64,000 bases of DNA, from assembly GCA_963749975.1 (NCBI GenBank), contig CAVVOZ010000014.1:961-64960 (forward strand). The letters run 5' to 3'. Shown in pieces: positions 58,781-62,608 of this stretch. The stretch comes from an uncultured Candidatus Rokubacteria bacterium (lineage in GTDB: Bacteria; Methylomirabilota; Methylomirabilia; Rokubacteriales; DASRDR01). Every line of letters starts with the position of its first letter. Within the stretch, counting starts at the first letter, position 1. The translations under genes and the position numbers were made by a program. The notes under the pieces were generated by a model, which did not search any database, had not been told where the DNA came from, and saw only the letters and a list, made by a program, of their open reading frames with translations.

Positions 58781-59353
58781 ATGAACGCAACCGAGGTGGC
58801 GGAGGCCGTCGAGCGCGCCCGGCGCGGGGAGCGGGAGGGCTTCGCCGAGCTCTACCAGGAATTCGGCCGGCGCGTGCTCGGCCTCTGCCGCCACCTTCTC
58901 GGCTCTCCGGACGCGGCCGAGGACGCCCGGAGCGACGTCTTCCTCCGCCTGCCGCGCGCGATCGATCGGTACGACCCGGCGCTCCCGTTCGACCGCTGGC
59001 TCCTGAGCGTGACGAGCCACCACTGCCTCGACGTGCTCCGGCGCCGCCGTCTCGAGTCCCGGCTGTTTGCCGCGGAGTGGGACGAGACCGACGGCGCGTC
59101 GGTGGGAAGCGAGCCCGGACCGTCGCCTCTCGCGGCGGTGCTGACCGACGAGGGCCGGGAGCGGGTGCGCGCCGCGCTCCAGCGTCTGCCCGAGCGGTAC
59201 CGGGTCTCGCTGGCTCTCCGCTACTACGGCGAGCTGGGCTACGAGGAGATCGCGAGCCAGCTCGGGGTGACGCGCAACCACGTGGCGATCCTGATCTTCC
59301 GCGGCAAGCAGGCCCTGCGCCGGCTGCTCGCGGATCTGGATGAGAGGGCTTGA
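58781..59353 (+). CDS. ECF RNA polymerase sigma factor
   Basis: DAAEDA..VFL, FDRWL..HCLDVLRRR, LPERYR, YEEIA; RBS GGAGG. Confidence 0.93.
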   Translation: MNATEVAEAVERARRGEREGFAELYQEFGRRVLGLCRHLLGSPDAAEDARSDVFLRLPRAIDRYDPALPFDRWLLSVTSHHCLDVLRRRRLESRLFAAEWDETDGASVGSEPGPSPLAAVLTDEGRERVRAALQRLPERYRVSLALRYYGELGYEEIASQLGVTRNHVAILIFRGKQALRRLLADLDERA

Positions 59354-59355
59354 CG

Positions 59356-60989
59356 ATGACGTGCCTGAACGAGCTCACCTGTGCGGTGTACGCGGACGGG
59401 GAGCTGTCCCCGGAGGAGACGCGGGCCACCGAGCGTCACCTGGCCGAGTGCCCGCGCTGCCGGGCGCTGGTCGCGGCGCTCCGGGACGAGAACCGGATGC
59501 TCAGCGCGGCACTCGGCGAGGAGGCGGCCCTCGCGCCGTCGCCCGTGGTCGCGGTGAGGCCCGCGTCGATCCTCGGACGCCTGGGCGCGGCGACGAACGG
59601 GCGCCGGGCGCGCGCGTGGGGGCTCACCCTGGCCGTGCTGGCGGGCGCCGGGGGCCTCGCGCACCTCGCCGGATGGGGAGACCTTCCGGGCCGGCCGATG
59701 GGTGACTGGATCGGCCTCGCCGTGGAGGGCGCGCTCTTCGTCGTGACGAACGCCGCCACGCTGGAGCGGGCGCTCACGACGCTGGCGGTCGCCACGATGA
59801 TGGGGCTGGCGCTTGCCGGCGGACTCTATCTCGGGCGGACTCCCTCGCGCGCGGTCGCGGCCCTCGCGCTGGTCCTCGGGGCGACCGCGGGGGTCGCGTC
59901 GTCGCCCGCCGAGGCGCTCGAGACGCGAAGCGGGAGGGACGTGGTGATCGGGGCCGGTGAGACGCTCGACGGGACGCTGGTCGCCGCCGCCGAGAGCGTC
60001 CGCGTCGACGGGACGATCGATGGCGATCTGATCGTCGCCGCGGCGCACGTCGACGTGCGCGGCACGGTGCGTGGCGACCTCGTGGTCGTGGCCGGGACCG
60101 TGGAGGTGGCCGGCACGGTCGAGGGCAGCGTGTACACCGCCGCCGGCTCCTTCGACGCTCCGCGGCCGCGTGGGCCGGGGGTTCTACGCCGCGGATCGCG
60201 CGACGGTGATCGAGCTCGGGGCAAGCGTCGGGGGCGACCTCACGCTCGCCGGTCGGAGGCTGTGGCTCGGCGGTGACGTGGGACGCGGCGCGACCATCTT
60301 CGCCCACGAAGCGGAGGTGAGCGGCCACGTCGGGCGGGATGTCCGCTTCCGTGGCGACCGGCTGGCGGTGCGGGCACTGGCGCGCGTGCAGGGAATGGTC
60401 CGGGCCGACGTCGCTCCGGGCGTCGGCCGTGACGATCGACGGCGGGGCGACCGTGACGGGCCCAGTCCTGACGCGCGTGGCATCGCGCGGCGCCGGGTGG
60501 TACGGAGAGCCGCGCGTGTGGTTCTGGGTGGCGACGAGCTTCTTCGGCGCGGCGCTCCTTGGCTGGGTGGGGCTCCTGCTCGTGCCCGGGCTGGTCGTGG
60601 GGAGCGCCGACGGGGTGCGGAGCTGGAAGCGATCCCTCGGGTGGGGCGTGACAACCCTCGTCGGGGGGCCCGTCCTGATCCTGGTCCTCGCGGTGACCCT
60701 CGTCGGCCTGCCGCTCGCGCTCGTCCTCCTGGGGCTCTACCTCCTGGGTCTCTACGCGGCCAAGATCGTGGTCGCCCTCGCCCTCGGGCGGGCGTTGCTC
60801 CGGCCGCGCGGCAACCCGCCGCGCGATGCGCTGCGGGCGCTGGTGGTCGGCCTGGTCCTCGTCACGCTCGCGACGGCCCTGCCTCTCGTGGGAGGCCCGA
60901 TCTGGGTCGCCGTGGCTTGCCTCGGCGCCGGGGCGCTCGCCGGGCGGCTCGCCCGGGCGGCGGGAGCCGTGCGAAGCTCGGGGGCGTGA
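59356..60989 (+). CDS. Zinc-finger (zf-HC2) anti-sigma factor with bactofilin-like beta-helix repeats and C-terminal TMs; frameshifts ~60155, ~60425
   Basis: YADGELS..HLAECPRC, TMs, repeated V.V.G.V.GDL motifs, TLVGLPLA membrane tail. Confidence 0.8.
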
Positions 60990-61661
60990 GAGTCGAGATC
61001 CGGACCGCGGCGGAGATCCTCACCCCCGAGCGGGCGGGGGAGTGGGCGGCTCGGCGGGCGCAACGGGACGATCCGCTTGCTCCGGGCCATCTGGCGGGAG
61101 TTCGTCGCGGTCGGCGGGCCGGTTACCCTCGAGGCGGCGTCGCGGGCTGTTCCGGGACTCGCGCCGGAGGCTCTCCGGGCGCGAGCGGCGGCGCTCGACG
61201 CCGCGGATCTGATCGGGCTGGACGGAGACCGCGTCACGCTCGCCTACCCGTTCACCGCCGAGCCGAACGACTTCGAGGTGGTGCTTCCCGGTGGCCGGGC
61301 GCGCTACGCGTGCTGCGCGATCGACGCCCTCGGCGTGGCGCCGATGGTGGGGAGCCCGGTGACGCTCCGGTCGCGCTGCCACCGGAGCGGTGCGCCACTG
61401 GTCTTCGACGTCGATCCGGTGGCCGGTCCTCGCCGGGCGCCCCCCGGAAGCCTCACGTGGGTCGAGCGGAGCCGATGGGGCGGCGACCGGCTCTCGGGCT
61501 TCCTCTGAACCCGCCTCAACTTCTTCCGGTCGGAAGAGGAGCTCGCGGAGTGGCGCCGCGAGACGCCGGACGGCGACGGGGCGGGGCTCGTCCTCGCCGA
61601 GGCGTTCGAGCTGGGTCGCCGGATGTTCGGCGGGCTGCTCCACGCCGAGCCGGCCGATTAG
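60986..61661 (+). CDS. MerB-like organomercurial lyase homolog, probable selenoprotein (UGA 61506-61508); +1 indel ~61076
   Basis: LAYPFT, CCAIDALG, RSRC, GFL-UGA-TRLNFFRSEEE..W..AEAFELGRRMFG continues in frame past the UGA to TAG 61661. Confidence 0.85.
61520..61539 (+). promoter_or_regulatory. Bacterial SECIS element
   Basis: CUUCUUCC-GGUC-GGAAGAGG hairpin after an 11-nt spacer from the UGA, like E. coli fdhF. Confidence 0.8.
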
Positions 61662-61759
61662 GGCTGCCCTTGTCCGCGGCGGCCTCGCGGGGAACCCTGG
61701 TGGACCCGCGCGGCGTGCCATAATCGAACCGTGACCCGTCGTGCCGGGACACGTAGACC

Positions 61760-62608
61760 ATGACGGACACGGGCTTCGGGCCGCTGGTGAGCACCGCGTG
61801 GCTCGCCGAGCACCTCGGCGAGGCGGGCCTCCGGGTCGTTGACGCGACCTGGTATCTCCCCACCCTCAAGCGCGACGCGCGGTCGGAGTTCGGCCAGGCC
61901 CACATCCCCGGCGCGGTCTACTTCGACATCGACGCGATCTCCGATCGAAAGTCAGGGCTCCCCCACATGCTGCCCGATGCGGTCACATTCGGTCAGGCGG
62001 TGGGTGCCCTGGGGATCGGTGATGGTGACCGTGTGGTCGTTTACGCCGGCAAGTACCTGTCCGCCTCGGCGCGCGTGTGGTGGACCTTCCGCGTGTTCGG
62101 ACACGAACGCGTAGCCATCCTCGACGGCGGCTTCCCACGATGGCGGGAGGAGGGCCGGCCTGTCGAGGCGGGAGAGCCGAGCCCGGTGCGCCGCCACTTC
62201 ACGCCGCGCCTCCATCCAGAGCTGGTGACCGACCTCGACGGCGTGCGCAGAAACCTCGCGACACGGCTCGCGCAGGTCGTGGACGCCCGATCGGCCGGCC
62301 GCTTCGCGGGGACCGAGCCCGAGCCGCGTCCCGGCCTCCGCGGAGGACACATCCCCGGGAGCCTGAACGTGCCCTACGATCGGCTCTTCCGGCCGGACGG
62401 GACGCTGCTCCCGCGGGACGACCTCCGCAGGGTGTTCGAGGCGGCCCGTGTCGACCTCGACCGGCCCATCGTGACGTCGTGCGGCTCGGGGGTGACGGCC
62501 TGCGTCCTCGCCCTGGGACTCGATCTCGTCGGCCGCCCGGACGTCGCCGTCTACGACGGGTCCTGGACCGAGTGGGGCGGCCGCGACGACGTACCCGTCG
62601 AGCCGTAG
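61760..62608 (+). CDS. sseA: 3-mercaptopyruvate sulfurtransferase (tandem rhodanese)
   Basis: HIPGA, LPHMLP, DARS..RF, CGSGVTA, YDGSWTEW. Confidence 0.95.
   Translation: MTDTGFGPLVSTAWLAEHLGEAGLRVVDATWYLPTLKRDARSEFGQAHIPGAVYFDIDAISDRKSGLPHMLPDAVTFGQAVGALGIGDGDRVVVYAGKYLSASARVWWTFRVFGHERVAILDGGFPRWREEGRPVEAGEPSPVRRHFTPRLHPELVTDLDGVRRNLATRLAQVVDARSAGRFAGTEPEPRPGLRGGHIPGSLNVPYDRLFRPDGTLLPRDDLRRVFEAARVDLDRPIVTSCGSGVTACVLALGLDLVGRPDVAVYDGSWTEWGGRDDVPVEP

Follow-up and report, generated by a model that had tools for sequence, protein, structure and literature searches.

What does the TGA codon at 61506-61508 do in a window of 64,000 nucleotides (nt) from an uncultured Candidatus Rokubacteria bacterium (assembly GCA_963749975.1, contig CAVVOZ010000014.1, positions 961 to 64,960)? 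It either ends a truncated protein that resembles the organomercurial lyase MerB or encodes selenocysteine (Sec, U) inside a complete one. With translation table 11, an open reading frame (ORF) extends from 61077 to 61508 (+) and closes at this TGA. Read with TGA as U, the frame stays open as GFL-U-TRLNFFRSEEE..., the residues after U being TRLNFFRSEEELAEW..., until the TAG at 61659-61661. The initial annotation, made from the sequence alone, had reported both the stop and the MerB-like frame that continues behind it; both are confirmed in the sequence, and the Pfam MerB domain (PF03243) spans the TGA. With good confidence we take the locus to be a real gene for an enzyme of MerB fold, about 224 residues long, whose UGA would be decoded as Sec. 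All features of the window described here lie on the + strand. The genome has a G+C content of 71% and the assembly is 91% complete.

Translated through the UGA, the product of 194 amino acids (aa) counted from TTG 61077 scores 84.2 bits against PF03243 (threshold 27). The match takes in the whole model (1-126 of 126; residues 59-185) and continues uninterrupted across the TGA. It thus spans the C-terminal 50 codons with their TAG stop (61509-61661), while the main body before the Sec codon (61077-61505, residues 1-143) is MerB-like by both Pfam match and fold. The AlphaFold2 model has a predicted local distance difference test (pLDDT) of 91.1 and a predicted template modelling score (pTM) of 0.88. 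In a Foldseek search with this model, ranks 1-11 are all MerB or MerB2, with template modelling (TM) scores of 0.61-0.77 and E-values of 2e-11 to 5e-8. Score and fold together place the product in the MerB family.

We built a family profile from 32 members and searched it against the MerB and MerB2 structures. It matches MerB2 (5C17) at 7.5e-30 and MerB (1S6L/3F0O) at 2.1e-22, and the alignment is without gaps at both active-site stretches. Here yacCAiDAlG aligns to MerB YAWCALDTL, which contains Cys96 and Asp99, and stslC/UttlNfF aligns to QSFC(S)HVHFF, which contains Cys159. The profile alignment therefore upholds two earlier assignments, that of the CAID motif (61314-61325) to Cys96/Asp99 and that of the UGA column to Cys159. 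An alignment of the single sequence is gapped near Cys159, and the equivalence comes out the same when residues are counted back from the FF motif. The equivalent of Cys96 is the TGC at 61314-61316 (residue 80; 110 in full-length orthologues), that of Asp99 the GAC at 61323-61325 (residue 83), and that of Cys117 the TGC at 61377-61379 (residue 101), which aligns to the C of MerB SSHCAATG and is followed by an invariant His. By conservation and profile alignment, the TGA itself is residue 144 (174 full-length). C80, C101-H102 and the U/C column are invariant in 32/32 aligned sequences; D83 is conserved in at least 90% of the 32, and the paralogue L059 has Gly.

The UGA recurs throughout the relatives of this gene. 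We tallied MerB-like places, selA and a flavoprotein discussed below in 61 related genomes, including the unpublished G055 and G038, both of which are excluded from the loci and alignments. Exactly one in-frame TGA is present in 34 of the 36 places with E <= 1.5e-29, and 2 are without one. In the fetched loci the TGA falls in the same column in 38 of 40, and the remaining two have TGC (L051 from G045, L057 from G025). A scan of one genome per species yielded 121 relatives, 80 of which were kept (TGA 77, TGC 2, TGT 1); the 40-locus and 80-locus sets overlap, and their counts are not independent. At this column these homologues have either TGA or a cysteine codon. An in-frame UGA that is conserved among homologues, with Cys at the same column in others, is what characterizes a selenoprotein. 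The Sec form L118 is ~60% identical to the two Cys forms and closer to them than to the window protein; therefore Sec and Cys forms mix within a subclade. A rough motif count over the best 148 cluster representatives at 50% identity found Cys at the column in 63 and a protein end ahead of it in 32, with 40 unclassified and 13 probably misplaced.

The sequence behind the UGA evolves like a coding sequence. A stop within the next 44 codons was seen in 0/32 orthologues. Differences per site at codon positions 1/2/3 amount to 0.29/0.29/0.47 over these 44 codons, similar to the 0.29/0.23/0.48 of the upstream core. Contigs from four metagenome runs (Logan) show no difference at 61506-61508 among the matches listed (40 of 140). 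Most of the relatives' records are metagenome-assembled genomes (MAGs) of Candidatus Rokubacteria, Rokuibacteriota or Methylomirabilota. A few carry the label Actinomycetota, Gemmatimonadales, Acidobacteria, Verrucomicrobiia, Myxococcales or archaeal, with mis-binning as a possible cause. Overall, the family is almost always in the Sec form and belongs mainly to Candidatus Rokubacteria/Methylomirabilota MAGs.

Some genomes contain further MerB-like genes. G042 has five MerB-like places, and in one of its loci (L044, G042:C142) a Cys-type MerB-like gene (…WTTFCHHIHFF…) adjoins the Sec-type gene; selA was not found in this 92%-complete genome. Four loci (L064-L067, from G056, G022, G032 and G018) represent a more MerB-like Sec clade, with the motif HT-U-PLINFFCSVEH, and L067 reaches 99.6 bits against the NCBIfam model NF009710.

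The genome encodes the machinery for Sec insertion. The gene for tRNA-Sec (selC; 76.9 bits, anticodon TCA according to ARAGORN) is located on contig C29 just upstream of selA (506 bits) and selB (77.7 bits for the wing domain). The fourth gene, selD, is on C23 (G000:C23:38140-39061, - strand); it is itself of Sec type (HGAG-U-ACK) and is split into two frames near LGEILRG in the assembly. With selA, selB, selC and selD all found, the genome has the gene set expected where a selenoprotein is made. Among the relatives with the Sec form, selA was found in 29 of 31. Of the two genomes with TGC, G045 has selA, and in G025 (98% complete) it was not found.

The UGA is followed, after an 11-nt spacer (61509-61519; of equal length in 32/32 aligned main-clade Sec loci), by a hairpin of the selenocysteine insertion sequence (SECIS) type at 61520-61539. 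Its 8-bp stem, which includes one G-U pair, is formed by CUUCUUCC (61520-61527) and GGAAGAGG (61532-61539) around a GGUC loop (61528-61531), with an energy of -9.7 kcal/mol in isolation. Direct reading confirms stem, loop and spacer as initially described. The additional claim that this SECIS is canonical holds in part. The bacterial SECIS model (bSECISearch), as summarized in the legend to Fig. 2A of PMC13188914, specifies a loop of 3-9 nt on a stem of 4-16 bp, G in the first two loop positions, a distance of 16-37 nt from UGA to loop and an energy <= -7.5 kcal/mol. As far as that legend describes it, the hairpin lies within all four constraints of the model (4-nt loop, 8 bp, GG, 19 nt from UGA to loop). 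An Rfam E-value scan of 61400-61700 returned chance hits only, and no matching bacterial SECIS model. In E. coli fdhF, the upper stem-loop is needed 11 nt after the UGA and carries a GGUC-type loop. The hairpin in the window would resemble it in spacing and loop type, and it has no bulged U.

Taken alone, this single hairpin is weak evidence and only moderately unusual. Of 19,986 random TGA triplets of the genome, 4.8% have a stem of at least 8 bp under loose bacterial-SECIS geometry; only 7 show a spacer of 9-13 nt, 8 bp and a GGNN loop. It is cross-genome conservation that carries the weight. Every main-clade Sec locus has the core UUCUUCC-GGNN-GGARGA, which is interrupted in the Cys forms. 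Across 30 Sec loci, whose proteins in some cases share only 40-50% identity, stem and loop are encoded by CGG (30/30), TCG (30/30) and GAA (25/30), codons with genome-wide shares of 41%, 38% and 7.4%, and the five GAG cases retain pairing via G-U. In two loci the loop has changed to GGGG or GGGC with the stem kept, and both Cys forms (FFQSQE, LFRSSE) have lost the hairpin. A similar arrangement occurs elsewhere in the genome: selD has its UGA followed by 12 nt, an 8-bp stem and a GG-containing loop, and in the flavoprotein gene on contig C37 the UGA is followed by 11 nt and the 6-bp hairpin GGUGCU-GGUC-AGCACC. In the distant Sec clade (L064-L067) the GGUC loop recurs, placed 4 nt further from the UGA and on a 5-bp stem of another sequence (UGCUC/GAGCA). 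Support for the hairpin thus comes from invariant unusual synonymous codons, from its loss in the Cys forms and from like geometry in another Sec gene of the genome.

Decoding of UGA 61506-61508 as Sec is strongly supported by this comparative evidence, and we consider it very likely. If the TGA were instead a true stop, the gene would yield a truncated MerB-like protein of 143-173 aa, and the 50 downstream codons would be a remnant or a separate small ORF. This is how public sets annotate such genes: none of the 120 best public proteins, which are named 'hypothetical protein' or 'alkylmercury lyase', goes past the UGA, coverage of the query is 76% at most, and the majority have a length of 173 aa (30 + 143 residues, ending at the UGA). 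The downstream frame, however, is open and under coding constraint in 32/32 orthologues down to ~40% identity, and the part it encodes completes the MerB domain and fold. Moreover, the Cys forms are continuous proteins, and a truncated one would be without the ligand equivalent to Cys159, which makes a genuine stop highly improbable. Nor do we find it plausible that the UGA is read through by a near-cognate Trp or Cys tRNA, or that sequencing errors have repeatedly turned TGC/TGT into TGA. What leaves some room for these readings is that the support for Sec is comparative and that the hairpin shows no covariation. They have to contend with a TGA that recurs in 77/80 loci from many independent assemblies, and with invariant rare codons that form a SECIS-model hairpin and vanish exactly in the Cys forms. 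The Sec machinery is complete, and this genome uses TGA as a normal stop too, as in the upstream ORF.

Several observations nevertheless weigh against decoding as Sec and against the functional picture drawn from it. The 71-nt fold does not exceed shuffled sequence in stability (z = 0.30). In 32 Sec loci the stem gives no covariation support because it never varies: paired cells make up 89.6%, both-sided changes were found in 0/8 pairs, 5 pairs do not vary at all, and each of 500 shuffles attains these values. Two of the 31 Sec-form genomes, G042 and G048 (89% complete), yielded no selA. The loop ahead of the Sec (residues 131-145) is modeled with low confidence. Finally, in a Pfam tally of 75 neighbouring ORFs (28 loci outside the genus), any family but MerB accounts for at most 3 ORFs.

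Is the copy in the window intact? The initial annotation gave the interval 60986-61661 and missed a one-base insertion near 61077. The interval measures 676 nt, not a multiple of 3, and the orthologous start codon, GTG at 60986-60988, is off-frame. At this position orthologues begin M-(R/S/T)-V-E-I-R-T-A, with GTG or ATG, and continue A-E; the GTG shares bases with the TGA that closes the upstream ORF at 60989 (GTGA). The first 30 codons (60986-61076), which read MRVEIRTAAEILTPERAGEWAARRAQRDDPL, are out of frame with the remaining gene in the assembly and continuous with LLRAIWREF in 11/11 same-genus orthologues. The window has CCGCTTGCTC where relatives have CCGC-TGCTC. The difference is one extra T at 61076/61077, which creates the TTG at 61077. 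It is absent from 11/11 same-genus orthologues and from 5/5 relatives in a 3.6-kb alignment.

Given the many indels in the assembly, we regard this frameshift as a probable assembly error. Two further 1-nt insertions found in the window only, at 60153 and 60414, split the upstream gene and, with that at 61077, make 3 per 3.6 kb. The frame is also broken in selD, which every Sec gene requires, and a Lpd/MerA-like gene on C17 (G000:C17:97589-98937) lies in three adjacent pieces (model positions 1-88, 108-286 and 288-450). Contigs of related populations without the extra T were found in two of the metagenome runs, 2 in run X3 and 2 in run X4 (neither of which is the source), and the intact form reads CCGCTGCTC. 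Indel aside, the copy in the window shares 94% identity with the closest orthologue and keeps all key residues. It counts against an intact gene that none of the sequencing runs proved to contain the source reads, with 0.35 of the words as the highest share in any run; the frameshift could therefore be real and the copy dead. It would then be a pseudogene, in which translation from GTG 60986 is off-frame and at best an N-terminally truncated protein is made from the insertion-created TTG. The insertion does stand in the assembly and sets this copy apart from the 11 same-genus orthologues, the inserted bases are outside long homopolymers, and with no run that contains the source reads the error is not proven. 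Set against the neighbouring insertions, the damaged selD and C17 genes, the otherwise undamaged sequence and the contigs without the extra base, a pseudogene seems rather unlikely to us, and we retain the assembly error as explanation. Frame breaks in or just after the gene were also seen in other long-contig MAGs: L036 (G001) reads into sseA without a stop, and in L037 (G004) and L122 the frame changes within the C-terminal part.

A comparison with MerB (EC 4.99.1.2; plasmid R831b; PDB 1S6L, 3F0O, 3F0P) and MerB2 (5C17) reveals the same fold, with TM scores of 0.71-0.77 to the crystal structures. The equivalents of Cys96, Asp99 and Cys117 are conserved, and the xNFF motif after the second ligand is shared as well. 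On the other hand, the window protein has Sec for Cys159, lacks Cys160 and shares an identity of only ~23%. Of the residues expected in MerB proper, the catalytic Cys96/Asp99 pair is thus present and the cysteine at 159 is not, its codon being TGA in 77/80 loci. The scores for the NCBIfam models NF009710 (55.8 vs 193 bits) and NF033555 (47.4 vs 200 bits) fall short of the cut-offs, and five relatives reach at most 99.6 bits. Furthermore, the window gene is chromosomal and its context is variable. In the 91%-complete genome MerT was not found and the best match to the MerA model has 393.6 bits (cut-off 454.45), which agrees with the earlier view that the gene stands outside a mer operon; this extends to MerT and MerA, as merR was not searched for. 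Identity as a bona fide MerB was rejected on account of scores below both NCBIfam cut-offs and the lack of a mer operon context, as judged from MerT and MerA.

That a Sec-containing MerB-like protein had been described is borne out by SaoL, the 'selenocysteine-assisted organometallic lyase' (NF040728; Haft & Gwadz 2022, bioRxiv 10.1101/2022.07.06.499078). The accessible part of this preprint reports it from strict anaerobes only. It is the one Sec-containing relative of MerB known to be described, and in the available text of two reviews the only such entry, given there under an identical accession and with a CU motif. SaoL and the window protein are both relatives within PF03243, their Sec aligns to MerB Cys159, they keep the equivalents of Cys96 and Asp99, and, as far as the preprint text goes, neither is encoded in a mer operon. 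They differ in several respects. For NF040728 (cut-off 140 bits) the window protein scores 40.1 bits in a partial match (residues 40-112) and five of its relatives 36.9-80.2 bits. There is no CU dipeptide, as U is preceded by L in the window protein and by L/T/F/Y/H in the relatives. The nine-gene SAO locus is lacking; the neighbours are variable, and in the window they are an anti-sigma/membrane gene and sseA. Lastly, the hosts are Rokubacteria/Methylomirabilota-type MAGs. SaoB and SaoC were not found in the genome, an absence that is weak as control genomes gave no match either. Identity as SaoL was rejected because of the score below cut-off, the missing CU and SAO locus, and the different hosts.

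Compared with the available models, the read-through product matches PF03243 over its full length and stays below the cut-offs for SaoL and MerB. None of the three NCBIfam models tested covers the family. Within PF03243 it appears to form a branch of its own, one that bears Sec and is new beside SaoL. A search of full-text literature, as far as such text was accessible, did not find a description of this clade; supplementary tables and large selenoproteome lists may hold it under another name.

By analogy with the known bacterial pathway, SelB carrying Sec-tRNA(Sec) would bind the hairpin at 61520-61539 while the UGA is in the ribosomal A site, and selC, selA, selB and selD of the genome would supply the charged tRNA. 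In the enzyme, homology suggests that thiolate and selenolate would bind a metal or metalloid atom and that the Asp would protonate the leaving carbon, resulting in protonolysis of the metal-carbon bond; as initially suggested, the substrate may be something other than Hg. We give even chances to MerB-like metal-carbon lyase chemistry of this kind, taken jointly with a Sec that occupies the Cys159 position and faces the equivalents of Cys96 and Asp99.

To our knowledge, no enzyme family other than MerB cleaves Hg-C bonds. A large branch that is almost always in the Sec form and belongs to abundant uncultured bacteria of soil and groundwater would make a candidate for organometal turnover that has gone unrecognised outside mer operons, with the degradation of methylmercury as a possible part of it. 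Exchange of the Cys159 thiolate for a selenolate should alter both the affinity for metal and the reactivity. Since none of the 120 best public proteins goes beyond the UGA and the NCBIfam models leave the family uncovered, surveys of merB would mis-score or mis-size these genes. Because there is one conserved hairpin, whose geometry would be fdhF-like, Sec insertion should be directly testable in E. coli.

Two genes flank the MerB-like gene in the window. The upstream one (59350-60989), interrupted in the assembly by the two insertions described above, encodes by Pfam match a membrane protein with a zf-HC2 anti-sigma domain and a bactofilin-like part, and it is a single ORF of at least 470 aa in 6 same-genus relatives. 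The downstream one (61760-62608) encodes a 3-mercaptopyruvate sulfurtransferase, an SseA-type tandem rhodanese (NF008557, 281.8 bits vs a cut-off of 250). Of 12 other loci from the genus, 9 have sseA downstream, against 0/27 loci of other genera. Synteny with the anti-sigma gene and sseA does not extend beyond the genus, and the context says nothing about the substrate. Synteny was rejected as functional evidence for this reason, there being no conserved partner in 75 ORFs from 28 loci.

Outside the window, the genome contains a second candidate for a hidden selenoprotein (locus L149, G000:C37:284760-286079, - strand). The product of this C37 gene is a class-I pyridine-nucleotide-disulfide oxidoreductase; an in-frame TGA takes the place of the second Cys in its redox motif (GTCLGTG-U-IPKK), a CxxxxU arrangement. 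Its best NCBIfam matches are Lpd (344.5 vs 408.8 bits) and MerA (327.6 vs 454.45 bits), neither above cut-off. The TGA of this flavoprotein type is conserved in 19 of the 61 relatives, 17/20 in family f1 and 0/37 in f2. A general joint occurrence with the MerB-like Sec form was rejected, since the latter is also present in f2 (23/37), where the flavoprotein is found in 0/37. It is conceivable, though in our view quite unlikely, that the Sec-containing MerB-like lyase and the MerA/Lpd-like CxxxxU flavoprotein together form a selenium-based, mer-independent lyase-plus-reductase pathway. If they did, such a pathway in soil and groundwater Rokubacteria would demethylate or dealkylate organometals or organometalloids, whether methylmercury or compounds without Hg. 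The terms 'pyridine nucleotide', 'dihydrolipo' and 'CxxxxU' are absent from the text of the review PMC13188914. In three genomes from three genera (G017, G015 and G020), a flavoprotein gene of the C37 type is located directly downstream of a MerB-like gene.

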